64,000 nt of DNA from Carcharhinus amblyrhynchos. Lineage: Eukaryota. Location of the stretch: NCBI GenBank assembly GCA_965287045.1, contig OZ336876.1:3348001-3412000 (forward strand). The letters run 5' to 3'. The notes under the pieces are model-generated. The model did not search any database, was not told where the DNA came from, and saw nothing but the letters and a program-made list of their open reading frames with translations. Position 1 is the first letter of the stretch; each line of letters begins with the position of its first letter. Shown piece after piece: positions 4,415-63,721 of the stretch. The position numbers and the translations under genes are program-made.

Positions 4415-4729
4415 ATGATGCCCAAGAGTTACCATCACCAACAATATCGATAGATCCAAGGAGTGGATCATTTGGGGAAGGAAGTTCGGCTCGCATTGAA
4501 TGCAGGACCCCGAGCAACCATGTAGGCAGCACCTTCTATTTGATACAAGTCGGGAAGGACACGCCAATTGCGGAGGAAACTGTTCCAGATGGAGAGGAGA
4601 CGGCTACATTTAAACTCCACAACCTCACCGCCCAACATGAAGGGGAATACCGTTGCTTCTACCGAAATAACAAATCAGGCCAATGGAAGAATTCAAGTTT
4701 CAGCGATCCAGTTCACTTAACCATGCAAG
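4415..4729 (+). CDS. Ig domain exon (LRC/IGSF1/HIDE1-type C2-like)
   Basis: Polypyrimidine tract, then aaag|AT ... CAAG|gtaaga; 315 bp, phase 1-1; LPSPTISI..C..P....STFYL....G ... ATF.L..LT..HEGEYRCFY ... SSFSDPVHL pattern typical of LRC-family domains. Confidence 0.92.
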
Positions 4730-6857
4730 GTAAGACTTTTTTTTCAAACACAAAAAAATGCATATGAAATCTCATTCTTCAACCCGAAAATGCACTTGCT
4801 CCCTCGGGTTGGGACTGAAGACAGGATAAAACACATGGGTAAATTCAACGCTATTGATTGTTGAACTTTTTTACTTCTTAGTCTGATAGACGTGCATGCG
4901 GTATTTTGTTTGAATTTCAACTTTTTTTTTCTGAAGTGGGAAAATATATCCAAATAGGATGGTGCTAATTATAAATTAGTTCATAAACTTCAGTGACTCT
5001 GGTGAAATTTCACCGTATTTAAAAATCCAACATGCGAATATAATTGTCAAAGGACAATTGTATTCCCGCTTCTGGCAGTCGTCAGAAAACTGATTTAACT
5101 ATTTCTGGTGAGGGGTTCAAGAACAATGTTAATGGTATACGCTCAGATCAGGTGCTGTAAACTATTGCTTGAAAACTTGAAGACTCCTGTGCATTTCTGA
5201 AACAAATTTAATGACATAGATGGACTGAACCGCCGCAAGATGTTACTTCATCAACAGGCATTGACAATATATTTTAGAATTCGAAGGGGAAATACAAACT
5301 TATACATCTGCGCAAATGATTAATCTTGTGTGCGCAAATGATTAATATATTAAATTGTAAGATCTCTGCCAATATAGTGGGAAACATTACTGCAGGAGAA
5401 ACAGCTCACGATTATCATTTGAACGAAACATAACGCATTGATATTCAGTTCTAAAGCAGGTTGCCTTTGAAACTTAACATAAACCGGATGCTGCCCCGAT
5501 TTTGACTGACATCCCCTTGAATGATATGATATATATCTTTTATATGAAGAGGAACTCACTGATAAATAACTTTCTTTTTCTGATGACTATTTGGAGCCAC
5601 ATGCGTCAGAAACACATGTAAAGGGAGGACTCTACATAAATGATGGATGATGTAATGGGATTGCATTTTTTTTCCTGTCATATTTGCGGGCTCCAAGGAT
5701 GTCTGGTGCCCCAGCATTCCATTATATCTCGTCTCAAAATGCTGACGTGGTGAAGGGTGTTTGCTGGCGGGTGGGGGCAAGGTGGGAAGGGGTGACTAAT
5801 CTCATTCGAAATTTGCATGAATGCAAGTAACAGGAAATAAATCAGTTCCTTGTATTGTTCACCATTTCAGCATTCACCATTGTAAAATATGATACAGAAC
5901 TTTAAAGTGCCTCGTAATTTAAAGAGCTGAAAGGCCCGCGGCGAGAACACTTGGATAACAATTAATGAATAGTTACTTCAAAGCACACTTTGGCCTTGTT
6001 CTCGCAAGGTCATTCGTCTCAGTCCAAGAATTATAGGATGCATTTAATGCTGGCATTGGAATCAAGAGAAGTCTATTTTATGTAGATAATCATTTGCGCT
6101 TTGATGACAAACTTTGCACCAATGAAACGGAGGTGAAATTGGTTATGGAGTGTTTAAAGAACTGGGTGTGCATATTATCAGGGTGAGATGAATACATCAA
6201 ATGTAAGTACAATGCTGCGGTTGCCAGTAATAAACATTATTGACATTAATTGCACTGATCACTTCAAAAGCGAGGCAGCATCCGTTCAGGGAGAGCACGG
6301 TTGGCTTTTCATATATTGTGAGTTCAAAAGTTCTTGCATCTACAAGTATTGAACTGCCATCAGACTCAGTGCTAACTAAGTTTCCTTTTGCACAGATGTT
6401 GGTTACACCGCTGCATATTGATACATTTGTCGTTTTAATTGAATCTGTTGGATATTGGTGTAATCGTGTGTCTTAGAGGAAGATTTATTATTTAAGCATC
6501 GTTTCTGACATCTGGATCATATGGAACCAACCTTGAAGTATTAACCAGAGACAGACTTTCATTATTGTGACATTTTGAGATGATTAACCATTGGTGCTGA
6601 AAAGTTAAAAAGTCCATGCACGTCTGTCTCAATGGCTTTGGGGCTGCCAATATTACAAAGTCAGTCGTGTTGTTCCTATAGAGATGCCAACAGTTAACAT
6701 TTAAACAATGATTTTCTGTCGGTAATCGTCTTCACATTGTAGCCAAAAGAATGATGTTTAATTCAAGGCCTTGTTAAAGAAGTAATGTTGTTTGACTTCT
6801 GGAATGAAGCATGTCGAATTGTTTTACTAGTTATGCGTTGTCAACTTCATACTTTAG

Positions 6858-6956
6858 GAATGAAAAATAATTGGATGTGGATCGCAATTGGGGCAGGTGC
6901 AGTCGCGTTTATTGTCGTTGTCATAGTGACTGTGTGGTGCATCTGCAAAAAGAAAG
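6858..6956 (+). CDS. Transmembrane exon of HIDE1-like receptor
   Basis: tttag|GA ... AAAG|gtgagt; 99 bp, phase 1-1; WMWIAIGAGAVAFIVVVIVTVWCIC followed by KKK stop-transfer. Confidence 0.9.
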
Positions 6957-7724
6957 GTGAGTACGATCGTTTTAATCGAGTCCATTTTCAGCACGTCCTC
7001 TCTGTTCAATCAAGTTTTCTCGAAATTAATGTTTCAGCATCGACACTAAGGGATAACTCAGGTGGTTGTTCATGACAAATTCTGATCATCCTCTCTGCAC
7101 TGTGTTAATCTGAGGCATGGACTACCTTGTCCAGTAGCATTAGTTTTATGGATGTTGATGTTTATCCAAGTTGATTACATTCCAATTTGTTCATCCAAGA
7201 TTCAGATTTAAAGTAACGTGTTTGTACAATATTTTAAAACCGGTCTTGTGTGCAATTTGTATTATATGTGCTGGACTATAAGCGAAAGAAGAACACCTTT
7301 GCAGAAATTGAATCTCTGCCAGAGACTATAAACCGGGAGTAAATATACATTGACTGATTCCTTACGGTGATATTCCACTGACTTCAAATTCTGAATTTCA
7401 GAATAATCTGCATCAATTTAGCCTTACGTGATCTTCCTACTATTAACCCACTCTTTGGGTTATTGTCGCTTGTCTTGTCCGTTTGATTCACAAAAGAGGA
7501 TGTTGGATGGGACGTGCTCAAGTCGAAAAGGTCTATTTTACTTTCAGCCCAAATATATTATTGTCCCGAATTTAAGAATACTTAGTAACAGTAGCACGTA
7601 GTGGGCAATTTCGTCCATGATCTATCCATGTCTTGTTTTTGTTTTCTATCTGCTAACACACATCATTTTATTAGATTTCAATGTCGATCGACAGTTAAAC
7701 CGTTCGTGCTTTTCTGTCTTACAG

Positions 7725-7752
7725 CCGAAGCCAGGAAAAGGAAAAATGATGG
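7725..7752 (+). CDS. Cytoplasmic exon 1 (AEARKRKNDG)
   Basis: tttctgtcttacag|CC ... GG|gtgaga; 28 bp, phase 1-2; basic juxtamembrane stretch. Confidence 0.8.
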
Positions 7753-9647
7753 GTGAGAAATGTTTAGCTTTCAATTAAATTTCAATGTCGCGGAATCACC
7801 TTCAGCAACATCGTCTCAGGAAATTTATGGAAATGTATATGTTTCTGCTCCCTGATAAATAAACCCAGGGTTATTTATTCATTTAAGTTTACCTGACTTT
7901 TGGAACTTGCACTACGTTATCATCTGAATGCAGAGCTGATTTTATTTTATTATTTCATTCGTTTGCATATCGAAACAATACCGCCTGCTGGTGAAATTCT
8001 GTATAGTTAGAAACGATTGCAAATTTGGTTTGAAAATTCAGGAGCAAAAAAAAAGCACATGTTAATTAAAATAGTTGGAAAACTGAACCAACATCTTATT
8101 TACGAATGTGGATGCTGGATATCACATCGGGTTCCCAATACAGGTAACCTTTTTTTTATTAAGACAAAGACATACGAGAACGCAGAGTTAAAGTGCCCAT
8201 GTGATAGGTAGGATTAGTGAACATCCAACTAAATGACAAAATAGGCTTCGAATATCTAACTTCCATCTTCCCATGTGCCTTCCATTTCCTACAGCATTCT
8301 GAAATGAACTAATTGATGCTACTGTCAGTATCACGGCGTTTGATACGTTGCAACAGTTTTCTGCAGTGACTTTTGCACAGTCACTGTCCTCAAATGTTAT
8401 TCTTATGGAGAAATGTATGTACAGAACGTTAAGAACCTCAGCGCATTTCGGCAATTCGAATGGATGATTGCCGAGTTATATTTTCAGCCCATTTGCCTTC
8501 CTAGTTTCATGGCCTTTCATCATATTCATAGACTCTATCAATGTATGTCTTCAAAGGTACAACTAAACTAGTACATGCACATTTTTGTGTGAAATTTTTC
8601 TGGATTACTATATCGAGTATTGCTCTTCTCTCTAACAATGCATCTAACATTAAGAGCATGTACCCTGCTTGTAGACTTTGCAAGAGCCGTTTTCTTCATT
8701 CTCGAAATGTTTCATCAAAACATTAGACAACGTTTTCAAAATTTTAATTAGAAAGCAGTTCGCTACTCCATAGGATAGCCCATAAAACATAGATTATACG
8801 CAATATTATAAGGACATTAATATTTTAGCAGCCCCCAAACTAAATGTAATATCCCGTTTGATATACTCACAACAACGAAGGCAAAGAATTCGGTTGCGCT
8901 GCTTTATTGCTCAATGGGATGTAATTATTGTTGGTATGACTAAATTCGTTTGACTATTCTGAATTAATCTTGAGAATGTGTTGATTTGCCACTTGAAAGT
9001 ACTTGAATTTATGCCTTGTTTTACACGTATATCGCAGTGTGGAGGAAATGTTATTGGGCATTTGGTAGATGCTTGTTTATCGAGGGAACAATGTTGCACG
9101 TTGTGACAGTCAAGAGAGCTAGTTAGAAAGGTATGGCGTCAAGCACATATCAGGTGAAGTGGTGAGTGCTCCATGATGATCCTGAAGAGTACTTCTCATT
9201 TAAAGTGTGTAGCACCGGTAAGAAGCAAATTTGCAGGTCTGCCGAGTTAAGTGGTTGTCCGAAAATGTTGACATGGAGATATATGACGTGGATAATGAAA
9301 ATGTGATGCGGTTTCGTTATGAATGTTGACTCTTACAGGTTCGAAGGCCATTATGCAGATTATACATTGAGACTTGTGGGACTCAACACATAAAATATTA
9401 ATAAAGCCACATGGATAATTCATGCCCTTTCATAGCCAATGTGAGACCACATAGGATAGTCGCAGTTATTGGAGGAACTTTGCAGACCTCTTGTCCTTAC
9501 CAAGAGAGGTTGGGAAATTCATGACTATATGAGTAATGAAAAAGAAATATACTCAATACAGGGTTTTGAGCTCGTCGATAAACTGAAATAATCACTACAC
9601 ATTTGAGGACCTTTGGCAGTAAAATTACCATCTGCTTTATTTTTTAG

Positions 9648-9691
9648 CTCCAATTTGTGGACGACATTTGACAGCAACATTGACAGTCTAC
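9648..9691 (+). CDS. Cytoplasmic exon 2 (SNLWTTFDSNIDSL)
   Basis: tctgctttattttttag|C ... C|gtaagt; 44 bp, phase 2-1, open in the required frame. Confidence 0.75.
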
Positions 9692-10296
9692 GTAAGTGTA
9701 AACGTTTATATCCAACACAATTTTCCCGAATATTACTTTTATTCGTGAAATAACTGAAACAACATCACAAAACATTTCAACATGACCATCACCGAAAATA
9801 CAAAGACACTTACGTTTTCTACGTAATACATGTTTCACTGTGACGTACTTCAAAACAATTGAAGGGACGTGACATTTCAAATGTTCGGTAGAGAAAAAGG
9901 CAATGAAATTTAAGTAGTTAGCCAATTTTCCACTCGATACTTCTGATAAATTTAACAGCGGTAAAGCATTAAAGGAATACATTAAGATAGACTTCTATGT
10001 AAAATTCTACACTATTCATTTCTGCGTCTGACTTGTTGCAAGGTTTGTCGCTGATAATTCAACAGAAGTGACAAAGACCGTCGTTCAGTATGTAAACTCT
10101 GCATTAAGTTAGATTATGGATTGACATCTTGGTTACAATTATAAAACAAATGTGCTTGTTCGGACGAATATGTGATGCATAGATAGGTTTGCAGCACAGA
10201 ATGCAGAGAAATCCAGCAAGTCAGACACCATGCTGTATTTGGCTGGAAATACAAATATTCTGCTGAGAATCGGCACTACTGGCAGCACCGGATATA

Positions 10297-11305
10297 AAGT
10301 CATAGATTCAGACAGGTTTACAGCATGGAAACAGGCCCTTCAGCCCAAATTAAACACACGGGCCTTTCTTTTTAAGTGAGTCCCAATTGTCCGCATTTGG
10401 CTCATATCCTTCTATGCCTATCTTACCAATATAACTGTCTAAATGTTTTTTAAAAGAGAGAAGTGTACCCACTTCTACTACAACTTCTGGCAGCTTGTTC
10501 CAGACACTTACCACCTTCTGTGTGAAAACAAAATGCCCCTCTGGACACTTTTGAGTCTCTCCCCTCTCGCCTTAGACCTATGGCCTCTAGTTTTAGGCTC
10601 GCCTACCTTTGGGAAAAAGTATTGACTATCTACCTGATCTATGACCCTCATCATTTTATAGACCTCTATAAGATCAACCTCCATCCTTGTATGTTCCAGT
10701 GAAAAGTCCTAATCTATTCAGCCTCTCCTTATAACTGAAAATGTCAAGTCTCAGAGCATCCAAGTAAATATTTTCTCAACTCTTACCAGTTTAATAATAC
10801 TCTTCCTATAATAAAGTGAGTAGAACTGTACACAGTATTCCAAGTGTTTGTTGAAGTTGTACAAATGCCTTGTACAACTTCAACAAGCCGTCCCAAATAC
10901 TATATTCAATGTTCTGACCAATGACACCAAGCAGAATGCCCTCTTCACCATTCTGTCCAGCTATGACTACACTTTCAAGAAGCTATGAAACTGTACCCCT
11001 CGACCTCTTTGCTCTGTAACCCTCCCTAACTCCTTATTATTAACTCAGTAAGTCCTGCCCTGGTTAATCTATCAAACTTCATCACCTCGCATTTATTTAA
11101 ATTTACCTCCATCTGCCTTTTTTATTCAGCCCACTGGTCCAATTGATCAAGATCCCGTTGCAATCCGAGCTAACCTTCTTCACTGTTCACAACGCCATCA
11201 ATCTAGTTGTCAGTTGCAAACTTAATAACCATGCCTTCTATATTCTCATCCACAACATTCATATAAATGACAAAAAAAAGTGGACCCAGCACTGATCCTT
11301 GAATT
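10297..11305 (-). mobile_element. CR1 LINE 3' part, same subfamily as 760-1740
   Basis: Reverse complement matches the tail and RT of the 760-1740 copy. Confidence 0.9.
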
Positions 11306-11489
11306 TGATGTAGAATGTTTCAGAAAATATGTATAATGTACGTGGATAATGGCCCCTGGTTGTCTTCGTGCAAAAGTCACTGAAGGTAACCACACAGTGG
11401 CAGTACAAAGGCCGAATTGTATTTTGGCTTCCAAACAAATTGGATTTGAATACGGGAACATGGATATTCTAATCCATTTAAGCTGCACA

Positions 11490-12060
11490 TTTGTGAGACA
11501 ACACATGGAATCGTCTGTGTCGTTCTGGACGTTTTATCGGAGGATGTTCCTACTGTAGCGGCAGTGCCGAGAAAGTTTTCCAGACTTATTTCTGGGATGG
11601 CTGGACTGACCTTCAACGACTGATTAAGTCAGTTAGCACTATATTCGCTAGAGTACAGAAGAATGAGGGTGAATGCCATAGAAATCTATACAATTCCAAG
11701 AGGATTAGACAGGGCCGATGCAAGGAGGATGCTCCTGATGGTTGGGGGGCACAGAACAAGGGATCACAGTCTGAGTGTACAGTGTAGATAGCTTAGGACA
11801 GAGATGAGAGAAATATCTGCACTGAGAGACTGGTTAGCCTATGGAATCCTAGAGGAAAGTGTTAGGGCCAAAAAAACATTTTATACTTTCAATTGGCTGT
11901 TAGAAATAACACTTGAGGTGAAGGAGCTGAAAGGATATTGTGGGAAGGGGGGATCAGGCTGTTGGACTGGATGGTCAGCAATTATCAGAATGTATGACAG
12001 AGCTGGATGAAGGGCCGAGGGGCTCATATCCACTAAGTTTCCATGAGGTTCACGATATTG
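11490..12060 (+). mobile_element. CR1 LINE 3' fragment
   Basis: LYSLEYRRMR-like segment and CR1 3' tail. Confidence 0.8.
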
Positions 12061-12699
12061 AATAGAATACATGACAAGCTCAAGTTAAGGGATCGGTTCA
12101 TGCACGTCTCCTATAAAGTAGACGAGGAAGATATGCATTCAAAAATTAGAGCAAGGGAACGATTAAGAGGTTTAAAATGGTGTAAATAAAAATCACTGAT
12201 CCGTGGTATTGTATTGCATTGACATAACTTCTCTATTTAGGCAAGAAGGTATGATTTCATAAACCAAGTCAGGACTTGCTAGTCACGAAGGTGTGTTTAT
12301 AACGCGGCCAAACGGCTGATGATCAGCCTGTAGATGTTCCCTGTACACCTGACAACAAGCTGTATTAATGCAAGTGTCTCTTAATCAGCCACAACCTTAA
12401 AAAGCAGGGCCAGTTACTGCAGGCATTTGCCATCCTTACAATATGATTGTCCATATTCAGCAATGTCCTCGTCAAGGTATGGTAGTGGAAAAAAAGAAGC
12501 GGAGATATGACTAATGACGAAACTGCAATAAAATAAATGAATTGACGAAAATACATTTTGACACCAACTTGTGATGACAGCATTGTAGTTTCAGCGGAAA
12601 TCAACCAACATAATTTTACCTGAGCTGTAAATGTTTACTACTAGCAAGATATTGGTGCATTTGAACTTTGAGCAATTATATTCCGTATAAGAAGATAAC

Positions 12700-14294: not shown

Positions 14295-14332
14295 GCACAG
14301 TGAGCAACCGCCAGACCTTCAGGTTTTCACGA
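14295..14332 (+). CDS. Cytoplasmic exon 3 (RTVSNRQTFRFSR)
   Basis: ctcttcttccacag|GC ... CGA|gtaagt; 38 bp, phase 1-0. Confidence 0.72.
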
Positions 14333-15989: not shown

Positions 15990-16035
<46 letters not shown>

Positions 16036-16060
16036 CAGCTTCATACACACCTGTGCACAT
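15680..16060 (+). repeat. CA-rich low-complexity tract with pure (AC)20 at 15993-16032
   Basis: Direct reading. Confidence 0.95.
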
Positions 16061-16142: not shown

Positions 16143-16280
16143 GGTCTGGAGCCCCAGGCGCAAGAGGACGGAGGGACCGCCTATTTCGCCAACCACAGTA
16201 CCGAATTTCTGAATGACACAGAGCTCACGTCAAGAAGATCGCAAAAGAAATCTTATTTTATCACATTCATGGAACAATAA
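16143..16280 (+). CDS. Terminal coding exon (GLEPQAQEDGG...KKSYFITFMEQ*)
   Basis: acattaag|GGT, phase 0, GC-richer than its flanks, open to TAA; the acceptor has only a modest pyrimidine tract. Confidence 0.62.
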   Translation, partial: GLEPQAQEDGGTAYFANHSTEFLNDTELTSRRSQKKSYFITFMEQ

Positions 16281-27329: not shown

Positions 27330-27680
27330 GTTGACCATTCTGCTCTCTCAGTTACACCAAACTCTTAAGCTGACGTGACTGTATTTTAATGCTACCTCTA
27401 AAATTGCACCCCGTGTCGCTCACTCCTTGCGCGCAGCTACAACGTACATCTCTCTCGCAAGTGTAAGTCATTGACTGCATTACAGATGCTATTTGGAGAG
27501 CCCTCATATCCTCGCGTATAAAGCCTCCCTGCTCTGGACGTAATATACAAGTTGAGCGCGAACGATTAGCTTAAATAGTTCAACATAACGTCATTGTTCG
27601 TTAATCTATGTAGCTGATAATAAGTCCCGGGATACGGGGAGCTTTATATGCCGATACTTATACCTGTCTTGACATGTTTA
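27330..27680 (-). mobile_element. Highly diverged CR1 fragment
   Basis: Reverse complement gives VMLNYLS..RAQL.Y-like RT C-terminal remnants. Confidence 0.5.
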
Positions 27681-27692
27681 ATTACTTATGTT

Positions 27693-28680
27693 GATATTTA
27701 TATAGATGATCTGGAGGAGGGAACCGAGTGTATGGTGTCGAAATTTGCTGATGACACCAAGATTGGTGGAACGGCAAATTGTGCGGAGGGTGTGGAGAGT
27801 CTGCAGAAGGATCTAGATAGGCTGGGCGAATGGGCCAGGAAATGGCAAACGGAATTTAATGTTGGCAAATGTGAGGTTGTCCACTTTGGTAGGAATAATG
27901 GTAGGAAGGACTATTACTTACATGGCGAAAAACTGCAGCAGGCGACGGTGCAGAGGGACCTCGGGGTCCTTGTGCATGAGTCGCAAAGACCCAGCCTGCA
28001 GGTGCAGCAGGTGGTCAGGAAGGCTAATGGGATGCTGGCCTTCATAGCGAGGGGGATTGAATATAAAAGTAGGGAGGTCTTGCTGCAGCTGTATAGGGCA
28101 TTGGTGAGGCCGCAGCTGGATTACTGTGTGCATTTTTGGTCGCCGCACTTACGCAAGGATATTTTGGCCTTGGAGGGAGTGCAGAGGAGGTTTACTAGGC
28201 TGATACCGGAGTTGAGGGGGTTGAGCTATGAGGAGAGGCTGAATAAACTAGGCTTGTACTCGTTAGAGTTTAGAAGAATGAGGGGAGATCTCATTGAGAC
28301 GTATAAGATGATGAATGGGATGGATAGGATAGAGGTGGAGAGACTCTTCCCGCTCAGAAAGGACAGTAGCACTAGGGGGCACAGCCTCAAGATAAAGGGG
28401 GGGAGGGGCGGTTTAGAACGGAGTTGAGGAGGAACTTCTTCACTCAAAGGGTGGTGAACCTCTGGAATTCTCTGCCCGTTGAAGTGGTGGAGGCTGCCTC
28501 GCTAAATATTTTTAAGACGCGGATTGATGGGTTTTTGATAGGCAACGGGATTAAGGGTTATGGGAAGAGGGCGGGAATGTGGATCTGAGCCACGACAGAT
28601 CAGCCATGATCTTATTGAATGGCGGGGCAGGCTCGAAGGGCTAGATGGCCTACTCCTGCTCCTAGTTCTTATGTTCTTAT
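27693..28680 (+). mobile_element. Young 5'-truncated CR1 LINE (RT C-terminus open for about 240 codons)
   Basis: ORF 27648-28427: IYIDDLEEG..SKFADDTKIGG..WQTEFNVGKC..RPQLDYCVHFWSP..YEERLNKLGLYSLE; frameshift in G-run near 28400; tail ttcttatgttcttat. Confidence 0.97.
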
Positions 28681-31600
28681 AGCCGCTGTTTTCTCTGTTC
28701 CTGCATACATATTTGATTGTTCACATTTAACTTACGTGGTGCCTACTTGCTGTAGCTATAAAAATGATGTATTTCATTTTTCTCTACATTCAAACGTACC
28801 TGTCCAGTCGTTCAAGCAAATTGCCTATGTCCTTCGGAAATTATTTATACCCTTTGCACAATCCAAAACATGTGCACAGCATGTCAGGTGATGTCCTGCA
28901 CACCGAGTTTTAGCTTGTGAAAATATATCTAAAAGATCATGGACCCCAACATTGGCCCTTTGGAAATGTAACTACAAACCTTCTTCCAGCCCGAAAATAA
29001 GAATAATTTTACATTGTGTTTTTGTGAAACATGTACAAATTGTTGAATACTGCTCTGGATTTACTACAAGTCAATTACGATATAGGTAATTTCTGAGGAA
29101 ACGCGATCATGGTCTGTGTTATCAAATCTAGAAGAATCCAGTCTCATCATTTTAATTGGTCCACTGACATATGGCAAGTGTCAAATTTCCTGCAAAGTGC
29201 ACCAAATTCGGGACACTTATTCCTCGCAAAAAAAACATTTTTTTTTTAACCTTTGCAATTCTTCACAGTTTCAGGCTGCTTCACTGTTTTAGAAACTAAT
29301 GATTCGCCTTTCTGCAGCTTATCAAGTGTATACACGCTATGTTTTTTGTAAGAAAAGGTTTGAACGTTACATTAGTTACTTATTAAGAATCTTGAGCGCA
29401 CAAAGATTTAGTTCTTGTATCAAAGAGGACACCTTCCTTCAACGATGTTGTCTCCAAGTGACACCGTGAATCAGGGGTCTCTTATTTCCCTGTGCATTCT
29501 TAACCAAGAACATTCTTGAGGCAATTTAGTGATGCCTGATTCATGTTCAAGTTCACAATAGTAATGCTGCAGATGTCGATCACATATGTGGTTGTAATCA
29601 GCTAAGCATTGCTGCTAATGACCACATATGAATTTCAAACAATCAGAATGAGGTTTCTCGGCAGGGATATATTGTGTTTGAATGGTACAGTCTTCACCCA
29701 GAAAACTGTATCCCATTAAATCCAGCCCTATTACGTGAAATGAGCGACGTGCCAGTCAATCAATCTCACGCAATGTCATCATTTGGAAGTAACAAGTTGG
29801 CAGACGGCCAAGTTCAAATTCGGTACCCACAGAACTTGGTATTGAAATAAAGAGACAAATCGCGGATTTTCTTGATGAAAGATATTCAGTCAGCTTCTGA
29901 ATGTCCATTAAAGAGATCATTTAGTTTAACGTGTAAATATTCGGACATTCAAACAGATGCATTGCAACTTCAATATCACGTTTTAATTTTCCTTTTCAAC
30001 CAGTATTTCTCCTATTTTCGTGGACCGTTTTCATAAGCATTTGAATCAGAGCCGATTCCTTCCTCCACTTCGACTCTTTCCAGATTCTCTGCATCGTTTC
30101 TGTGATTAAGAGTGGCATACGTGATGAAATTATCGTTGGTTTCATCTGAGGTTACCTGTAATTGAATTATATGTGGATGAAGTTAATGATGAGTCTAACG
30201 AAGACCAGAGCAATGGACATTTCAAGAAAAGCAAGTAGTTCGAGATTGAATAACTTAATTCCTAATCATTTCTCTTATTTTGCCCTGGATTTGCGCTACA
30301 CTGGCAAGTCAGAAATTGTTGCCAGGAACTATTTTAAAGGTGTAGCGCGCTAGACTATCACATTGCATAGCTAAAAATCAAACATATTTCTCAGGGCCTT
30401 CAGTGCTTTGTAAATCAAAACATTTGAGGAGTACCGAATTCCCTCTCTAAGATGCATCAGTAAACCCAGATGTAGCTTTGTTTTACAAGTCGCGCAATTG
30501 TTTTACGTGCGTGGAAATCAAGTCGGTCTTGTGAAGTGACAGCACACTCCATTTCTACGCAAGTTGTGCTTTATGCCCATTAGATCGTACAAGTCTCCTG
30601 CCGAAGGTAGTCTTGTAAATCGAGAAATGACCTTACTTTGATGAACCAGTACTTTACTCCAATTCGATTTCCAGGATCATTTGGTTGTAACTTGCAACAT
30701 GAAAGAGGCACGTTTTCATCCCATCAATAAAAACAATATACATTATCGAGGATGCCCTCCTTGATTCTGTGCCCTGGAGCCACGCAAACGCACCTTCTAG
30801 GCTCTTACACTTTTTAGTGGCTAACGGCTGCTTCTGACATTGATTTGATCAAAGGGTAATTTAATTTTAAAGCATTATATGAACTGGATGTGAATGTATG
30901 TCATTAAAATGCTTTAAATTATAATGTCCTAGCATTTTTTATTAGAGTAGCAATTAAGTATCAACTCTGCTTTGCGAGTCAGTCCTAGTTGAAATCTTAA
31001 ATTGCTGTGTAAATTTATCACCTTGTTTATATGAAAACATGATATGTTAAGAAAACTCATTGCATGACTCAGCTGCTCATAATGAAAAGGATGTACACAA
31101 ACACATTAGGTCAGTGTGGATCATTACACATCAACTTTAATCGTAGCTTCCAGAAAAAAAAAACTAAACATGTTTCATAGCTATTCACTGAGACCTCTAG
31201 AAACAACATCTGTTCCACCATTCATTTTTGACCATGGTTGATCATTGAATCCTTTTCAACAAATAATGCCGGCTTATTTTGTTCTTTCTTTCCAGTTTTC
31301 AGCGGGGGCATTAAAGGCCAGTATGCGCTGCCAGAGGAGGTGGCGGAAGCATGCACATCCGCAACATTTAAGAGGCATCAGAATGAGTGCATTAATAGCG
31401 AATGAATCGTGGGATAAGTGTCGGTATAAAGTGATCGGGCACAATGATCAGCACAGGCTTGGAGGGCTGTTCCTGTGCTGAACGTTTCTTTGTTCTTTGA
31501 TGCAAACTGAATATTTGCTGGCAAGCGTTAAGCGTGGAAGATTGTCGACGCTCTATTCAGGTGCGTGAAGTAACCGGCACACGCACCCTCAACATTAAAG

Positions 31601-38251: not shown

Positions 38252-38380
38252 TTAGCTCCGTGGGAGGTTTTCATAATCACCACCTTCCTCCATTTCAAGT
38301 GTTTCCAAATGATTGTCCTTCATGCCATGATGAAGCGCTGCATACGTAACAAAATGTTCGTTGTGGCTTTCCATGTTATT
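38252..38380 (-). CDS. FCRL terminal exon with ITIM VTYAAL and C-terminal DYENL
   Basis: tttctctttaaatttcag|AAT, phase 0; NNMESHNEHFVTYAALHHGMKDNHLETLEMEEGGDYENLPRS*; too short for the ORF track. Confidence 0.88.
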   Translation of the reverse strand, partial: NNMESHNEHFVTYAALHHGMKDNHLETLEMEEGGDYENLPRS

Positions 38381-41296: not shown

Positions 41297-41328
41297 CTGA
41301 TTACATCTTGCCTTGCCTCCATGGATAT
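41297..41328 (-). CDS. FCRL cytoplasmic exon 4 (DIHGGKARCNQ)
   Basis: cttaattttcag|AT ... CAG|gtacgt; 32 bp, phase 1-0. Confidence 0.8.
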
Positions 41329-43334: not shown

Positions 43335-43400
43335 CAAGGTCTTGTGCTGTTGCTATTGAGACAAGTGAATAAACCAGATTGGCATCGCTTTTCGTAGCAT
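43335..43400 (-). CDS. FCRL cytoplasmic exon 3 with ITIM LVYSLV
   Basis: ttttcccatttaatttag|AT ... G|gtaagc; 66 bp, phase 1-1; DATKSDANLVYSLVSIATAQDL. Confidence 0.88.
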
Positions 43401-45750: not shown

Positions 45751-45751
45751 A

Positions 45752-49003: not shown

Positions 49004-49089
49004 CATTATTTTCAGTGGCTTGAAATTGTCCGAAATTGATTGCAGATGCCTCCTCATTCAAGGGTTGAGATCGATTTGCACTTGCCTCA
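49004..49089 (-). CDS. FCRL cytoplasmic exon 2 (EASANRSQ...ATENN)
   Basis: ttttattgtacag|T ... G|gtaagt; 86 bp, phase 2-1, open frame. Confidence 0.8.
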
Positions 49090-52764: not shown

Positions 52765-52795
52765 CCTTCTGGCAGGGAAACACCGGAAGAAGTAC
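52765..52795 (-). CDS. FCRL cytoplasmic exon 1 (STSSGVSLPEG)
   Basis: tttttatattttaaccag|GT ... GG|gtaagc; 31 bp, phase 1-2. Confidence 0.82.
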
Positions 52796-54009: not shown

Positions 54010-54114
54010 TTTGGCTCTTCTTCCGAATCCTGATGCAAACCAATGCAATCATTGAAGAGCTAAGAAGAAGAATTGAAGTAATGGCTGGTGTGATAACCGC
54101 TGCATAGCCATGAT
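54010..54114 (-). CDS. Transmembrane exon of FCRL-like receptor
   Basis: tttccttcattctag|AT ... CAAA|gtgagt; 105 bp, phase 1-1; YAAVITPAITSILLLSSSMIALVCI + RIRKK. Confidence 0.88.
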
Positions 54115-54620: not shown

Positions 54621-55249
54621 AAAGCATGAGACAGCAAAGAGAGAGTCTGAAGTAACCAAACTAATCATTGACTCGCTGTCACCTAGCCATTGTCTGTCGA
54701 CGCAGGAAGGTAAAGAAAAACATTCAACATGGCAACATGTTTAACAAAAACATGATCTCTTGTTACAATACCTTCTATTGCGGTCCCCAAACCGCACGGT
54801 TGGCAACGTAAAAACAATGGCTATTGGTCCTATTTAATACGAAGTGCTATTTGCCACTGTGCCTACTCATTTTTTAAACCGTTATTTTTTTCAGAGATTT
54901 ACCATTAATTTGACAATCTTCCTCTCAAAGTTTACTTTTGATTAGAACTGTAATTCAATTAATAAAATATTGGCCATATCTACATGTTACATTCAACGCT
55001 GATTTCAGTTAGATTTTTTTTTCTTTGACTGCTTTACTAATCACTTCAATTCCGACCCGTGCTCTATCAACATTCCCATTGTTCCAATTTTCTGCCTTTC
55101 CAAGTCTGCCGCTCTTTTTCTTGCAGCTTTTGGGGCGAATGAGCAGGCCATTTCAAGTCCAATTGCCCCTTCTTGTTTCTGAGGTGTTTTCCTGAGGTAC
55201 AGACAGGCAACATTTGTTTTTGTTTTACCACAACATATTTTTCACATGT

Positions 55250-55560
55250 GGGGACTAAAATAGCAAGGCAGGCAATTGTTGTCCATCACTAGTTGTCAAT
55301 TAACTGACTAGCTTCCTCATTCATCTCGAAGAACACGGAAGAATAAACTAAAACAATCTGCTTCTGCAGTCAACATCGGCCAGGGCAGGTAAAGATGGAA
55401 AATCTCCTTCCCAAAAGGCCATTGATGAATCTCATCGGCTGTCACAATAACTAATAATTGTTTCATGGCATCCAACATTGATTCTAAATTCCAATATCAA
55501 TATTATTCTTTATATTCCAAGAGCATTCATTAAGGGAATTAAACGCATAACCGCAAAGGT
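55250..55560 (-). mobile_element. Deu-domain SINE, degraded
   Basis: ggccagggcaggtaaagatgg..tccttccc in reverse orientation. Confidence 0.6.
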
Positions 55561-56040
55561 TAATCCAGTCAATTGATATTACCCAGTGGCACAGTTTTTA
55601 GCACATTTTCTACACTCTGCCAGACAGGCGATTTCGATTGGCGCTTTGTTTGCATGTTTATGTGGTGTTTGCCTGTTTCCCCCATGCCTGCTTAATTCAT
55701 GATCGTCAAACAATCCAAACTTGTGCAGAGGAGGTAGATTCGCCATGAAAAGGTGCCCCTTAATATCCAAAGATATGCATTTATGTGGACGGGCCATGAT
55801 CAATGTGCATGTTTATACGGGATAGGTCAGGATGTGTGCCTAGGTAGAATATTCTTTCGGAGGTTCGTTGAAGACATATTGAGCTTAATGAATTATTTTT
55901 GCACTGCTGAGGCCTTATGTATTCTAAAGATTCATTCCTCCATGAACTGAACCTGATAAAATCATTGAAAAAAAAACACCTGTTTGCATGTTGATACAAA
56001 ATGATACAAAACATCAGAACAGGTATGATCAATATGTTAC

Positions 56041-56343
56041 CTTTCAACGTGACATCGATATACTTGCTGCTTATATTAAATACCGCTCCATCGATGCCAC
56101 TGTTTGTCGCTACACAGTGATATCGTCCTCCCTGGTCTTTCTTGAATGAATTAATAATGAGTTTGCTCCCATCGATGTTTAAGTGATAAGAGTCGCTGAA
56201 GTTTTCTACTTTTTGACTGTTTAAGTACCAGTGAAATTGTGGTGCAGTGCCTGTCCTCACCAGACATTGGAGAACGAGACGGTCCCCGGTGGAAATCTCA
56301 CTCGTGTTCATACTTGACATTAGAAAAGCATCCGACACAGGAA
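56041..56343 (-). CDS. Membrane-proximal C2-type Ig exon
   Basis: ggctctag|TT ... AAAG|gtaaca; 303 bp; VPVSDAFL..GDRLVLQC..GTAPQFHWYLN..LIINSF..DQGGRYHCVATN. Confidence 0.92.
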
Positions 56344-56719
56344 CTAGAGCCATAGAAAGAATTAAAAAAAAAATGCATTTTATAATATATGCATAGTTCA
56401 AGATTTTATTAGTTAAATATCGAACTAAATAAATAAATATTTGCAAAGTTGTGCAAATATCATTGGCATTATAATTGGAGAATGGTGATGGATTCCAAAT
56501 CAGTTAAGATTGTAAGGAATCTGGAAAGACTGTACGAGATTTCCAACGATGGCTGGATTATTAAGCCCGCGGCCCAAATTTCAGCTGTTTGCCAAATAAA
56601 CAAAGGAGTCATGAGAAACGTTTTATTTTTGCCACGAGAACGCTGTTCGGATGGCAACGTACTTCCAAAAATGTGTCAGACGTTGCACTAACTACGGTTG
56701 AGGAAAAGAGGGTCAGATG

Positions 56720-57310
56720 ATTATCTATTTAGGGGCTTAGGGGCTTGGTAAAACTATACAAGGTGAGAACTGGAATACTGGGAACAGCTTTGGTCCGCTT
56801 CTACGTGGAATGATATATTGTCATTGGAGGCAGTCCGAAGAAGGTTGACCAGTTGTTCCTAGTTGTTCCCAGATATGGAATCATGTTCATATGAAAAGAG
56901 ATTAAATTAGTTTGGGTCTGAACTCATTGCAGTTTAGAGAATGAGAGGCCTTACTCAGAGTAAGGCCAGACGAGATAGATAGAGGAAGTTTACTTCTGCG
57001 GGAAAGTCTAGGACCAGGTGACACAATCTCATTATAAGGAGTCGTCCAATTAAGACACTAATGGGGGAGGTCGGGGGTATTTTTCTCTCTGCGAGTAGTG
57101 AATCTGGGAAATTCTTTACAGTAGAAGGCTATAAACGTTGGGTTATGGGATGTTCAATGCTAACAGTGACAGATTTATTATCTGAAAGGCAATCAACAGT
57201 TTTTTTTTGGATGCATCAGGAAAGCGTATTTTAAGATTATACCAGCTGGAGAACCACAGATGGCCTGAACGGTCAACTTCTGCCCCAATATCTTATGCTC
57301 CTATGGTCCA
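56720..57310 (+). mobile_element. CR1 3' fragment
   Basis: LEYWEQLWS, LEAVRRRL, SYEKRLN remnants and tail. Confidence 0.75.
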
Positions 57311-57739
57311 GCTTTGAGGAAAAAGCAGGGATGTAGGGGAAAAAAGGTCAGTCATACTTTGGGAGAACTCTCAGTATGCCGGTTGAATGTATTTTCTATA
57401 TGCTGAATGCGTTCTATGCTGTTATGGGCTGAAAGCTAATTGGCAGTTGCATCGATTTCAATCGGATCCTCGAGTTGCACACTCACTGCGTGGCATATTA
57501 GTTCTAAATAATTATTCCTCTAACTGCAAGAAAATAAACTGCCACGCATTGGTCAAAAACAATCAAATTTTCCCTTTATCGCCCGGGGTGCATTGGTTGC
57601 AGGAAATGTAATTCAGCTATTTTTGCGCCAAGTGTCAGTGAGATGATTTGATGTGAAATTACCGATGCTTAACATGCGTAAACACGAGCTGTCATAAAAA
57701 GAAACGCACAGCAGATCAACAGGAGCTTCAGCTCTCTAC

Positions 57740-58240
57740 GTTGACAACAATCAGGATGCCGTAACTAAACAGAAAGTCATTTTGCCTTTCTTAGGTCCGT
57801 ATGCCTCTATTCGTGCCTTATTATTTAAACCATTCGGATGCCTATTAAATGTTGCTAATGTGCCTTTTTCTACCGCCTTCCCTGGCAGAACTTTCCCAGC
57901 ACCCACCACTCTCTGCTTGAAAAACTTCCCTTCACATCTTCCACAATTCCCCCCTTTCATCTTGAACCTGTGACCCCTTGGAATTGAAACTTCCACCTGG
58001 CAAAAACCTTGGAATATCCACCCTGTCTATCCCTCTCATAATTTTGCCAGGTCTCCCCTCAGCGTCCTTCCTTCCAGTGAAAAGATTCCTAGTTTATTCA
58101 TATTCAACCCCTCCTCAGAGCCAAAGCCGTCGAGAACATGAAAGGATCTGGTGAATGTTTTTCGTTCGTTCTCCAAAGCTTCCACGTCCTCCTGGTAGCT
58201 TGGTGACCAGAGGAACACGCAACTCTCCAAATGGCAAATT
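57740..58240 (-). mobile_element. CR1 3' fragment
   Basis: PRGHRFKMKG, KFFKQRVVGA, LWSPSYQEDVEALE. Confidence 0.8.
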
Positions 58241-58439
58241 AGAATTTTAATGACGGAGACGGTCATGCACTTTCTTTTTGAGATGCAGATGCACGCCTCT
58301 GTGCAGAGCTGGCATGTAAATAAAAAGGCCCCTCTCGACAGAGAGAATGAAGGCAATGTTATATGATGCCTGACCATCAAAGTTCAATCATATGGAGAGA
58401 CCTGTTCATTTGAAGGAAAGAGAGAACGCTTTTGACAGG

Positions 58440-58800
58440 CACCGGCGCACTGTGGTAAGCACATTTGCTTCACACTGCTAGGCATTGGGTTCGATGTCGT
58501 CTTTGGCAACGTCTGTGTGGAGTTTGCATGTTTTCCCCATATATATGTTCTCCCGGCGCTCCAGTTTCGTCCCACGTTTAACTGTACGTAGTTTAGATCG
58601 TTTGACCATGATTATTGCCCCCTAGCGTCTCAAGATGTGTAGGTTAGAGAGATTAGCAGAGTAAATATGTAATGTTACAACGATCACGTGTAGTGTAGAA
58701 TGAAAGTTGTGAATAATACTCTGTCGTACAGTTGGTGTGGATCAATGTGCTGAATGGTCTCTATCAGCACTATAGAGATTCTATTATTCTATGGTACTAT
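58440..58800 (+). mobile_element. HE1-type SINE
   Basis: ggcgcactgtggtaagcac..gggttcgat..gtctgtgtggagtttgcatg. Confidence 0.75.
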
Positions 58801-58889
58801 GAATTAAAGCTGCCATTGCAGTAGAAGCGCACACACTTCAGTCAAACCGAGCGTAGCGAGAGTGAACGTGATAGACATGCAATCTGGGA

Positions 58890-59190
58890 TTGGCGGGGCG
58901 GCACTGTGGAACAGTGGTTAGCAATGCTGCCTCACACCGCTAGGGCACGGTCTCAATTCCCGGCGTGGTCACTGTCTGTGTGGAGTTTCTCCATTCTCCC
59001 TGTGTCTGCGTGAGTTTCCTGCCACTGTACTCCAGTCTCCTCTCACAATCAAAAGATGTGCGGGTTAGGTGGATTGGCTATGCCAAATTCTCCCTCAGTG
59101 TACCCGAACAGGTGCCAGAATGTAGATTTTCACAGTAACTTCATTGGAGTGGTAATGTAAGACTATTTGTAATTAATGAGTAAGGTTTAC
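58890..59190 (+). mobile_element. tRNA-derived SINE (HE1-like head, different 3' tail)
   Basis: ggcggcactgtggaacagtggttagcaatgctgcctcac..ttaggtggattggctatgc..cacagtaacttcattg tail. Confidence 0.8.
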
Positions 59191-60380
59191 TTTAGGAAGA
59201 GCCATTTTGGGGCCAAATACTTTGGCTTAGCCATTGGAGCATTGAGGATCTAATCGATTGTGTGTTGCCAGCAGTGGATTAAAGATCCATGCTTTCTCGA
59301 CATCCTGCAGCACTTTTTAAATTCAAATGAATGTCCCAGAAAGGCCCAGTCAAATAAACGCTACAACTTCAGTGGGAACTGCTGAATTTGGAAATATGAC
59401 ACATAAACTGGAGTGAATTTGAGCATTAGACCTATTCTCCATGGACATGTTTTTTTTTCCCTGATGATTGCTTCTGTTGCCATATTTCTTAATGATCGGA
59501 GATATGGAACATGATAAGAAAATTTACATTTAGCATGTCTTTGTGCATATAGAAGCTAGGAAACAGGACAATTGATTCAAACAAGTTTAATGTATAATGG
59601 ATGAGGGACAAATGTATCTGTGTTTCGTTCCCATGATGAAGGGGAGAAGGGATAATATTTTTCCTTTTTTAAAATTATTTTTAGTTCAGATTTTTAAGCC
59701 GCACAGATATCTCGTTCTCTCCATGTAACTTCCTCATTCCCCAGAAACTAGGAGGCTTTGTGAGGGATGAAGTAGCTGCGCCAGTGTGTGTTGCTCCAGT
59801 GTACAACTGGTATGTGTGAGAGAAGACATAATAGAAAGAGTAGTACCATGCTGGATGTTGAGGGACAGAAAGAGAACTAATAGTGAAAATGGGAAACGCA
59901 GTGGACTGTGGCGTCAGAGAAAACACATCTGCTGTGACTTCTTGTAAAATGTACCCACTGAAACTTATTAGTGGTCGAGGTTGAATGTGAAGGTCGAGCA
60001 AAAGGGAAGCATCACATAGGAAGAGATCATTTTCCCTTAAATGTCAGTCTGCACAGCAATACCGATTGCACTCTGCAGTGAAATGGCCAGATCTCTCACA
60101 GTATCACAAATGATTATTGATTTTTCAAATATAAACTGTGTATGGAGGGTGGAGTAATGCTGAGATGAGTCTGCATCCTGCACAGTTCAGTGAATAAAGA
60201 ACAAAAGGAACGTGAGTGGTGATAATTGGGCAAATGCATACCTTGGTCTGAGTGTCACCTGTAATAACTGAGGCAGCTAGTTGCTTATTGCAAATATGCT
60301 TCAGCAGAATTATTATATACACACTTATCTTAAATCGATTCACGGCATTTATCTCACATCATTTATTAACATTGACTCAC

Positions 60381-60668
60381 CTATCACTGCCATCCACACG
60401 AAATTGCTCTGCAGGGAATCCTTTGTCCATTCATTTGCAACACAACAACTGTAATTTCCTTCCGAGGTTTTGTTGACTTCAATGATTCCATATGTAACCA
60501 TAGTCAAGTTAGTCGTCTCCCAATAGAGTTCCTTATTGAGGTTTTTGTAGAACGTATAAGTAATAGGAGTGGAGCCTTTGGACACTGAGCACGTGAAGGA
60601 CGCTACATCTCCCTCTATCAATTTGTTTCCGGGTTGTATTGTCAATCGAGGTTTTGACAATGGAATTC
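60381..60668 (-). CDS. FCRL D4/D5-type Ig exon
   Basis: attgatag|GA ... ATAG|gtgagt; 288 bp; RIPLSKPRLTI..EGD...FTCSVSKGSTPITYTFYK..SEGNYSCCVAN. Confidence 0.93.
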
Positions 60669-61129
60669 CTATCAATATAAGAATCGATTAGTTTGCAATT
60701 TGACTTGTAGGAATTTTGACTGTTTGCAGTCGGCTGAAATCTCGTTGTAATTTGTCGTCACTATTGGAAATATCTATCAAAGACAGGACTCTGCAATAAT
60801 GCAGTGCGATAGGGCTACATTGTCTAAATCAGTGGTGCAACTGTGCATTCCACTTGTTTATGTATTCATTGCGAGAAATTGTTTATACGTGGAGGAGGTT
60901 TACGTCATCATTTTCAGGTTTGTAGTGATTGCTACACATTGATGACTCCTCTTACTTATCTGCAACATGAGAGATAATAGTTTATTATCAGCATTCAATG
61001 TAATATGTAAGATAACAATGATAAACCGGGTGCCACTTTGATGCATCCCGTGAAAAATGTGATTTTGTACATTCACTTTTCTGCGATTGTTGTGTGAAAT
61101 TTATTTCATTGGACGCTTTCTGTTGTTGA

Positions 61130-61370
61130 CAACAGCCGTCCAGTCACAGCCCATCTTGATTCTACTTAGTGATTGACGTTATAGTTAATTTTAAGGGGAG
61201 GTTCAGCCGCAAACAGATTGTTATGGGTCAGTACATATGTAGGTCAGCTCAGAAAAGAACGGCATATTTCTCTCTCTAAAAGACATTAGCGAACCAGATG
61301 TTTTTTTTTATTTAGTATAAAAATTCAATATTATGGCCACTGTTACTGAGAAAAACCTTATCATACAGGG
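61130..61370 (-). mobile_element. Deu-domain SINE fragment
   Basis: cacatatgtagg-like, ggcatatttctctctctaaaagacattagcgaaccagatg in reverse orientation. Confidence 0.55.
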
Positions 61371-61549
61371 CCATGGTGGCATTTGGGCTAATGTGCTTCA
61401 AACTTCCAAGCACAGCATCAATACCAACATATGACAATCTCACATTATTCCAACAACATACCCACCAATATATGCAATTCCACCATAGAGCACTTATTAT
61501 GGATGTTGTATCAAAAATAAATAAATACATTCCTACAAATTACACTTAC

Positions 61550-61828
61550 TTCTGACAGAAACCACAACCTGATTACTCAGTTTCTTCACTCCACCATTGA
61601 GATTAGTTGCTTCACAGGTGTACATCCCTGAATCGTCCATCCCCACTCTCTCCCGTGTATAATAGTCGTATTCTGCAGTGTTAATGAGAGTTTGTCTGTC
61701 TTTCGAAAATGTGTACCTCAGAAGAAAATTGGAACGAAATATTTCAACCAAGCAGGTGAGATTTAGCTGTTGACCCTCAAACAACTGGGCGCCCGACTCA
61801 ACCTTCAGTACGGGTTTGGAGAAGACCT
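61550..61828 (-). CDS. FCRL D3-type Ig exon (second copy)
   Basis: cttattag|AG ... AGAA|gtaagt; 279 bp; EVFSKPVLKV..EGQQLNLTC..LRYTFSKD..DSGMYTCEA..VKKLS. Confidence 0.93.
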
Positions 61829-62959
61829 CTAATAAGAAGCAAATGCACAAGAACAACGCACGCATTAACCATCTGTCACAATGAATCTTACCACCACATA
61901 TATTTGGATAAAACCGAACATTGATCAGAGCAATGTTATTTCTACTGCAACTCTCAGAATGAGTTGGTCAAATATCTGTGTGTGTGTTTAAGAGTGACAG
62001 GAAACTGGCATAGCAGCAACTTTTGCAACTGAAATCGAAACTAATTCTTGCATATTATGTGGACACAATTTGAATCATCGTTTAAAATAGATGTAAACAA
62101 CTTTTAGGCTTGTAAGTATAGCCAGAGGCTGAAGTTGAATTAGGAACTGAGAAGCGCTGATTCATGCTCAAGTTGAAATCCACTCTCTGCAGAGATCGTA
62201 TTTTACATCTAGGTCCTGAACATTTAAGGATATTTTGTGACCACGTTTTAAATGAGATCAGTTCTGCTGCCACGACCATTATTTGTGAATCAACTGCTAT
62301 CCAATTTTCTGAATAAAAACCTCCTCACTGTCACACTCCCTGTTTCACTGAAAATTACAATCTGTCAGTGGCATCAGATTTTCTTTTATTTCACTTCTCT
62401 CCCGCTGCAGATCATGGAAAGAGTGTCAGATATGACGTTGGTAGTAGTGGACGCGTTCGCCCTTTATGAATGCAGGAGACTGCATTTCATTTGGCACTGA
62501 AATATTTTTGCCTCAGATATTTTAACTTTGAACACTTGAGTTCTCAAACCTTCTGTCCACACTTTACAAAGAGTTGGCAGCCTTAAAGCATCGGCTGACA
62601 TAATGCTACCATTTCGACTACCTTTAGCTTCTATTGAGTCAAGTGGGAACAAACAGAAGAAATGATTTCAACTTTTGTCCATGGTGTAATGTATGAGTTG
62701 TGTCAAAATATCAGACCAATGTTCACCAGATAACTTTTTCTTTCACTTGCCGATAACGATTTTTTTGGAGAGGACATTAAAATGGAGACCAACTAATGTT
62801 TTGCCTATTTCACACTTTTCATGATAATTTGTCTCTTGTAATTGTGTATGGTACACCTTTGTCAACAAGTCTGAAAAACTGTGGCTTATGAAATATGGAG
62901 TGTGAATGAACAACATGGTCCGGTGATTATGTTACATTATTTTATTTAGTATATCATTG

Positions 62960-63310
62960 GATTGAGGCACCGCTATCAAGAGCAGCATGTATTGCCCACC
63001 CGAATTGCTCTGGAAACGAAAACGTTTCAGAGAGCTTTTTTTAATGATACATATTATTGTGGCTCTTCAGTCACGATTACGCCAGGCCAAGTGAGGACAG
63101 GAATTTTTCGATTACTGGACCAAATATTTATTTTTCATGCAATAATGGGTGGGTTTAAATAATCACCATTACTGAGAATATATTTCAGTGTCTATGGCAT
63201 GGATGGGAATTATAGAGTCTGTCATGGGTGGTTTTGAACTGCTATCCCCAGAATTTAAACTTGGGTTTCTTGAAGACGATTCTCTGTCAGTACCGTGAAC
63301 GTCCATCTAT
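62960..63310 (-). mobile_element. Deu-domain SINE, degraded
   Basis: attgcccaccc, aggccaagtgaggacagg, ttttgaactgctatccccaga. Confidence 0.55.
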
Positions 63311-63442
63311 CCAGAAATGCTCTATTATCATCACCATACAATGGTGTAACAGTCAGTCATCGACTGTATGAAACTCCCACATCATGCTTGTTTAAATATA
63401 ATTTGTGCAATACTTCTTAATATATAGTGTTGCTGCACGTAC

Positions 63443-63721
63443 CCTTGACGGAAATTGATACCTCATCACTCTTCTTTTTCAATGTATAACGCCGAGAATT
63501 TGCTTCACAGTGATAGATCCCAGAGTCACTCAAGGAAGCCACAACTTCGTATTTATAGCTGGGAACGGAATTATAATTTAATTGTCTGCTGTCCTTGTAA
63601 AATGAGTATTGAAGCCGCTCATACTTCTGCCTTGTTTGCACAGCACAAATAAGTTTTAATGGCTGTCCCTCCAATATTTCATTTATTGGATCAATCTTCA
63701 GTGTTGGCTTGGAGAAGAGTT
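63443..63721 (-). CDS. FCRL D3-type Ig exon
   Basis: cattgcag|AA ... AAGG|gtacgt; 279 bp, phase 1-1; ELFSKPTLKI..EGQPLKLIC..LQYSFYKD..DSGIYHCEA..KKKS motif of FcR/FCRL D3 domains. Confidence 0.93.

Follow-up and report, generated by a model that had tools for sequence, protein, structure and literature searches.

How did two families of immune receptors that mammals keep on different chromosomes, the Fc receptors (FcR) and the KIR/LILR receptors, come to stand next to each other in a shark? The question is raised by a stretch of 64,000 nucleotides of Carcharhinus amblyrhynchos (the window: positions 3,348,001-3,412,000 of contig OZ336876.1, here C7), which lies near the tip of this chromosome-scale 128-Mb contig and carries two receptor genes in tail-to-tail orientation. 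Judging by sequence and predicted fold, the + strand gene has an immunoglobulin (Ig) domain of the type found in the leukocyte receptor complex (LRC) and in HIDE1, and the - strand gene is FcR-like. We find that the window is a seam in a region of LRC markers, with an LRC-type array on one side and an FcR-like block on the other. The linkage probably goes back at least to the split between horn shark and smooth-hound and, in the reading that we favor without regarding it as secure, probably descends from one ancestral FcR/LRC cluster, of which the shark would then preserve a relic.

The seam and its marker genes

Upstream of the window, the union of several scans gives at least 98 positions of LRC-type Ig exons at C7 0.54-3.35 Mb, with SRCR exons interleaved among them (26 of the 150 SRCR matches listed fall there), and downstream, at 3.40-3.74 Mb, there are 35 FcR-type Ig exons, one of them partial. 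The latter make up six FcR-like genes, five of which have last exons of the type carrying an immunoreceptor tyrosine-based inhibitory motif (ITIM), an extra exon at 30.1 kb of the window not being counted; for the sixth, a copy on the + strand, no tail was found. These counts take in the paralogs beyond the window that a first-pass annotation, made from the window alone, had left to be counted. Because the window is the border between two tandem blocks, the tail-to-tail orientation of its genes requires no function.

The region is identified by its other genes. Namely, on the distal side, an RBFOX-type gene, a JOSD2-like Josephin gene and a DUF3754 (TMEM143-type) gene are the immediate neighbors of the FcR-like block, and they are followed by a WD40 gene, TSEN34, LENG8, TTYH1 and a histone array, with an SBK-type kinase, RPP21 and ERCC1 at the other end. 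TSEN34 lies about 0.7 Mb from the + gene with no gap between them, LENG8 is identical at 41 of 43 residues, and the other two Tweety genes are elsewhere, on C18 and C21. The distinction of JOSD2 from JOSD1 (79 vs 73 bits to the sole PDB entry) is not firm. The names SBK, GRWD1 and RBFOX are our assumption from motif likeness, the searches showing only a kinase, WD40 and Fox-1_C/RRM, and so is the name RFX1, which is backed by exon translations alone. In human, ERCC1, JOSD2, TMEM143 and GRWD1 are found at 19q13.3. The first-pass annotation had looked to human 1q23 or 19p13 for the counterparts of the neighbors; the markers found are instead those of the LRC at 19q13. That the FcR-like genes lie inside the shark LRC is well supported, and we hold this identification of the locus with little doubt.

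In the sections of PMC6557307 dealing with the mammalian complex (LILR, KIR, LAIR, OSCAR, GPVI, NKp46, FcaR), Ttyh1, Leng8 and Tsen34 are listed with the non-LRC genes that lie between clusters of the LRC. The shark region shares with that complex C2-type Ig domains of the same fold and clade, the tandem array, these three genes nearby and the presence of both ITIM-tailed and Arg-transmembrane (TM) members. It differs in that its array is interleaved with SRCR exons and abuts FcR-like genes, that CNOT3 and NDUFA3 lie elsewhere, and that its domains group with the HIDE1 type, outside the amniote LRC subgroup, in a tree of 177 domains. Another comparison is with the teleost LITRs, in which, according to the parts of PMC4810170 and PMC2413239 devoted to them, FcR-like and LRC-like domains are likewise associated and signaling is paired. 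However, one LITR protein holds both domain types, whereas at C7 the mixture is between neighboring genes: the exon maps of 3.15-3.81 Mb contain no gene with both.

Some further features of the arrays may be recorded here. At C7 3.15-3.28 Mb and 1.10-1.47 Mb, genes alternate SRCR and LRC-type Ig exons, and their relatives are named DMBT1-like by NCBI. In mammals, SRCR genes adjoin both FCRL (CD5L) and the LRC (SSC5D). Within the FcR-like block, the genes at 3.65-3.67 Mb (+) and 3.72-3.74 Mb (-) are near-identical and inverted, a recent duplication.

The two genes of the window

The exons of the + gene in the window, the evidence being given in brackets, are the following.

4415..4729, + strand: single Ig exon, C2-type, of LRC/HIDE1 type (PDB sequence matches to PIR-B/LILR; predicted fold; tree)
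6858..6956, + strand: TM exon, a hydrophobic stretch without charged residue (tblastn with the Mustelus orthologue; splice fit)
7725..7752, + strand: tail exon 1, basic (Mustelus tblastn; splice fit; open frame)
9648..9691, + strand: tail exon 2, with a conserved Trp (Mustelus tblastn; splice fit; open frame)
14295..14332, + strand: tail exon 3 (Mustelus tblastn; splice fit; open frame)
16143..16280, + strand: last coding exon and stop, with a conserved Y-F-x-T-F end and no canonical ITIM (Mustelus tblastn; open frame)

These six exons join at AG/GT splice sites into a single open frame; a leader exon is found shortly before the window start. The gene is intact, and its aligned residues agree with Mustelus LOC144494207 at 184 of 218 positions and with the horn shark orthologue at 121 of 214; taken together, the spliced models of the window proteins are 84% identical to their orthologues in the smooth-hound Mustelus asterias. 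It is conserved in sharks and rays, all 20 matches being elasmobranch.

Several lines of evidence bear on its family. The six best of 55 PDB sequence matches of the Ig domain are PIR-B/LILR, the seventh being FCRL5. Its predicted structure (predicted local distance difference test score, pLDDT, 92.5) finds the LRC family, namely LILR, LAIR1, NKp46, OSCAR, CHIR, KIR, GPVI and FcaR, in all of the top 50 matches listed, the best with Z 15.6 and a root mean square deviation of 1.4 over 96. Domain trees were built at three sizes, near-copies and extra repeats being dropped: a quick, larger tree with 177 of 267 domains, a second one with 74, and 33 domains for approximately unbiased (AU) tests. They were drawn without LITR, XFL, CHIR and mammalian HIDE1, so that HIDE1 stands here for the frog and sturgeon proteins so named by NCBI. 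In the 74-domain tree, whose bootstrap had not settled, the + gene groups (98/92) with the shark array, the HIDE1 proteins of frog and sturgeon, a coelacanth protein and the amniote LRC domains, and in the quick tree it falls with HIDE1 and the shark array in a group with support 95. Placing it among FcR domains is rejected (p-AU 0.003), and the + gene thus belongs where the first-pass annotation had put it, in the HIDE1/LRC clade. By sequence, tree and predicted fold, its Ig domain is of LRC/HIDE1 type.

Is it HIDE1 itself? Like HIDE1/C19orf38, it would be a type I membrane protein with an LRC-type Ig domain, an uncharged TM segment, a basic tail start with Trp and an F-x-T-F end. Unlike it, the gene stays below the cut-off of Pfam Ig_C19orf38 (18 bits, cut-off 23.2) and is not beside CARM1 and TIMM29, which we take to be the neighbors of human HIDE1; both are found on C33, where the 140 kb beside CARM1 contain no Ig exon. 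We therefore call the gene LRC/HIDE1-type, on its sequence, and not proven HIDE1, because unions with HIDE1 (p-AU 0.48) and with amniote LRC (p-AU 0.39) are inseparable, neither being rejected, the likeness of the tails is weak, and 41 other exons pass the Pfam model, fitting it better. Of the hallmarks of the LRC family, the spliced model has neither an ITIM tail nor an NxxR or otherwise charged TM segment. The gene appears to exist in one copy and to encode a receptor with one Ig domain and a conserved tail lacking an ITIM, with HIDE1 as its closest counterpart. At the edge of an array that changes fast, it may be a conserved, framework-like member.

The - gene reads in the opposite direction, and is listed here from its stop upwards.

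38252..38380, - strand: last coding exon and stop, with an ITIM (VTYAAL) and a further Tyr motif (Mustelus orthologue; splice fit; open frame)
41297..41328, - strand: tail exon (Mustelus orthologue; splice fit)
43335..43400, - strand: tail exon with an ITIM (LVYSLV) (Mustelus orthologue; splice fit)
49004..49089, - strand: tail exon (Mustelus orthologue; splice fit)
52765..52795, - strand: tail exon (Mustelus orthologue; splice fit)
54010..54114, - strand: TM exon, uncharged (Mustelus orthologue; splice fit)
56041..56343, - strand: membrane-proximal Ig exon, I-set-like (best PDB matches contactin/MDGA; position unstable in trees)
60381..60668, - strand: Ig exon, best matching the repeated membrane-proximal FCRL5 domains (FCRL5, E 4.5e-25)
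61550..61828, - strand: Ig exon of FcR D3 type (FCRL5, FCRL4 and Fc-gamma-RI D3 in PDB; with mammalian FCRL third domains in the tree, 93/79)
63443..63721, - strand: Ig exon of FcR D3 type (domain search; trees)

Read from 63721 down to the stop at 38252, these ten exons give a single open frame, and about 2 kb past the window end there is a fifth Ig exon. The gene is intact, with 445 of 529 residues identical to a Mustelus protein named 'Fc receptor-like protein 3', with which it shares its two ITIM-consensus motifs. FCRL5, FCRL4 and Fc-gamma-RI are the best PDB matches for two of the three exons searched, and the best 60 PDB matches listed for the membrane-proximal Ig exon include no FcR. 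We also considered PECAM1: the PECAM1-like exons, according to a genome search and a quick tree, are separate, on C21. The domain types named in the first-pass annotation hold for both genes, and we regard the - gene, going by its sequence, as an FcR-like receptor with ITIMs, a name that does not imply binding of antibody Fc. The shark block resembles FCRL1-6 and Xenopus XFL in its D2-, D3- and D5-like domains, its shuffled tandem architectures and its ITIM tails. It is unlike them in standing among LRC markers, not SLAM/IGSF9/DUSP23, and the - gene in particular has an I-set-like membrane-proximal domain and no one-to-one orthology with any mammalian FCRL.

Age and origin of the linkage

Linkage in other sharks was judged from record lengths and accession numbers, the search reaching only close relatives. 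Both genes are on one record in two of seven species, Mustelus (148,774,877) and the horn shark (27,249,576), which indicates that the linkage extends beyond C. amblyrhynchos. In the horn shark, what is more, the accessions are near-consecutive, with FCRL at XP_067878186/189, a neighbor with three Ig exons at 191 and the + gene at 192-199. Such a run points to close neighbors, and is not a map. In our trees, the - gene and the three-Ig gene found just upstream of the + gene on C7 are orthologues of these horn shark genes. It is therefore likely, and we would be fairly confident in saying so, that the linkage dates back to early galeomorph sharks.

Would the conclusion about origin be different if the FCRL block had arisen at a 1q23-type locus and a single move in an early shark had brought it to the side of the LRC? 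In that case, the linkage would be real and old, and silent on the origin of the families. We consider such a move unlikely, yet it is the most serious competitor of an ancestral cluster. The part of PMC2413239 on Xenopus places its FCRL genes with SLAMF8/IGSF9/DUSP23, as in mammals. The tip of C7 is repeat-rich and mosaic, flanked by RPP21 and a histone array and with CNOT3 and NDUFA3 elsewhere, and in other sharks either the block or the + gene has changed place. Against this, no 1q23-type marker accompanies the FCRL block in the 0.67 Mb read distal to it, where its neighbors are RBFOX-type, JOSD2 and TMEM143, and five genome searches, which give floors only, brought up no further FCRL-type cluster. 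A second competitor is recent or repeated chance adjacency, in which subtelomeric immune clusters came together twice, once in the line of smooth-hound and requiem sharks and once in the horn shark. It would account for the + gene and FCRL matches being on different records in catshark and carpet sharks. However, the same three genes, orthologues of horn shark genes with near-consecutive accessions, would have had to meet twice, and two breaks of an old linkage would be simpler than two identical joins; we judge this explanation improbable. Finally, an assembly artefact joining two unlinked clusters, to which a satellite tract at about 3.85-3.87 Mb and the duplicated state of both arrays might lend themselves, is very improbable, because the assembly runs without a gap between 3.148 and 4.098 Mb, a span that takes in the window, TSEN34 and everything between them, and because two other species have both genes on one record.

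The reading as a relic of one ancestral cluster has its own weak points, in addition to the Xenopus synteny. The two genes are on different records in four of the seven species (Stegostoma, Chiloscyllium plagiosum, C. punctatum and Scyliorhinus torazame, three of them from one order, the carpet sharks), Carcharodon being uninformative, and the comparison covers sharks only. On C7, 100-base gaps at 4,098,398 and 515,266 split LENG8/TTYH1 and SBK/ERCC1, respectively, from the arrays, 0.70-3.15 Mb was read in part, and the marker set is incomplete, because CNOT3 is on C35 and NDUFA3 on C13 and C804. Support for the D2-type (95/78) and D3-type (93/79) groups with mammalian FCRL in the 74-domain tree is moderate only, and a position of the D3-type domains beside the LRC group survives the AU test (p-AU 0.40, 33 domains). 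The likeness of the + gene tail to HIDE1 is weak (HHalign P 0.039), two of 13 shark tails beating all 300 shuffles and the score of the frog HIDE1 tail being equaled by four of 300. The Arg-bearing TM of the three-Ig neighbor is recognizable in the horn shark as LRC-type (E 4e-6 on a profile of nine LRC-type NxxR TM segments), but the exon on C7 itself went unranked in the same scan. Lastly, UFC1, NDUFS2 and an FcR-gamma-like (FCER1G-like) exon are on unplaced scaffolds and none is on C7, SLAM genes not having been searched, and a second FCRL locus could therefore be hidden there; no Ig exon was found in 50 kb around the FcR-gamma-like exon (C189) or in 10 kb of C92, lengths too short to exclude one. 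As for other markers, SDHC gave one weak match, on C13, PRPF31 gave none, an ETS search returned nothing on C7, and a porin search gave no useful placement of TOMM40/TOMM40L.

The first-pass annotation had proposed a relic of an ancestral mixed cluster that split in tetrapods. Its first half stands, in that a mixed FcR/LRC cluster is found. Ancestry for all jawed vertebrates and a tetrapod split go beyond the evidence; in four of the seven species the two genes are on different records. We regard the former as plausible, with the balance leaning slightly the other way. More tentatively still, one can envisage that the FcR and KIR/LILR families, with SRCR genes, stood side by side before or soon after the jawed-vertebrate genome duplications; tetrapods would have kept FCRL at a 1q23-type and KIR/LILR at a 19q13-type locus, and sharks both at the LRC, hence a full multi-megabase LRC with paired receptors.

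What might such a complex do? The - gene could encode an inhibitory leukocyte receptor, whose two ITIMs, once phosphorylated, would recruit SHP/SHIP-type phosphatases. Inhibition by ITIM-bound phosphatases is established for FCRL and LILR. The wider array may supply paired receptors, with ITIM-tailed members (an ITIM-tailed white-shark protein is another member of the LRC-type family) and Arg-TM members, such as the three-Ig neighbor; the latter would be the activating partners, signaling via an FcR-gamma-like chain. Growth of the array would have proceeded by tandem duplication and shuffling of Ig and SRCR exons. We note that an FcR-gamma-like TM exon is at C189:322,662-322,745 and a CD247-like one at C15:15.41 Mb, both named by motif likeness.

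These results bear on published views. A statement in PMC4016189, from 2014, has sharks without FcRL, FcR-gamma or C2-only LRC genes, with an origin at the base of bony fish, and a remark there describes the idea that the two loci share an origin as 'an interesting possibility'. Contrary to the former, a shark is seen here to possess both families, an FcR-gamma-like exon and LRC markers, with the families in physical linkage. A passage of PMC6557307 describes the time of LRC origin as still unclear, and one in PMC8302630 places the LRC on a proto-gnathostome microchromosome; our finding dates the LRC to the jawed-vertebrate ancestor. Common FcR/KIR origin was argued from TM likeness in a portion of PMC2413239, and LITRs are related to both families in the corresponding portion of PMC4810170. 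With the present data the idea becomes a question of gene order, answerable from public ray, chimaera, gar and coelacanth genomes. Shark proteins of this kind are already labeled FCRL- or LILR-like by the automatic naming of NCBI; a shark LRC that contains FCRL genes was not found described in the open-access literature, supplements and most subscription journals being outside this scope.

Between and beyond the genes

Two features lie between the stops.

27624..28427, + strand: long interspersed nuclear element (LINE) reverse-transcriptase fragment, part of neither gene (Pfam RVT_1 below cut-off, E 7.6e-5)
30012..30155, - strand: isolated, intact second copy of the last exon, with ITIM-type motif and stop (tblastn; AG acceptor)

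The first-pass annotation had put the stops about 22 kb apart, with no other coding gene between them. The distance is 21,972 bp and no gene was found: none of the 444 open reading frames (at least 30 aa) matches Ig or SRCR profiles, and none of the 29 longer ones is above Pfam cut-off. What had been missed is the isolated ITIM-coding exon, which is an exon and not a gene. It lies 8 kb past the normal stop of the - gene, its AG acceptor has the phase of the normal last exon, and in tblastn it matches the horn shark FCRL tail (48%, E 8e-8) better than the normal last exon does (43%, E 2e-4). On these features, it probably serves the - gene as an alternative end, or else is a remnant. Two sets of reads presumed to be RNA show no splice joint in either gene and no cover at 30.0-30.2 kb, which is evidence neither way. 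If the exon is used, two tail forms of the - gene are possible.

Farther out, RPP21 (C7 0.481 Mb) and the histone array (4.19-4.38 Mb) form the two ends of the block; in human, both are neighbors of the extended major histocompatibility complex. An LTR/retrovirus-like element (LTR, long terminal repeat) sits among the histone genes at about 4.25-4.26 Mb, and C7 0.33-0.41 Mb holds repeated exons of small Cys-rich membrane proteins with weak TEX29/TMEM190 matches. A C17 exon and the C22 array, raised by a whale FCRL3 query, do not group with FCRL domains in a quick tree; the latter is another large tandem array of Ig exons, at C22 9.87-10.63 Mb. Relatives of the C7 array, in the form of outlying LRC-type Ig exons, occur at C29 35.4 Mb, at C31 23.9 Mb, on C108 and on C40.

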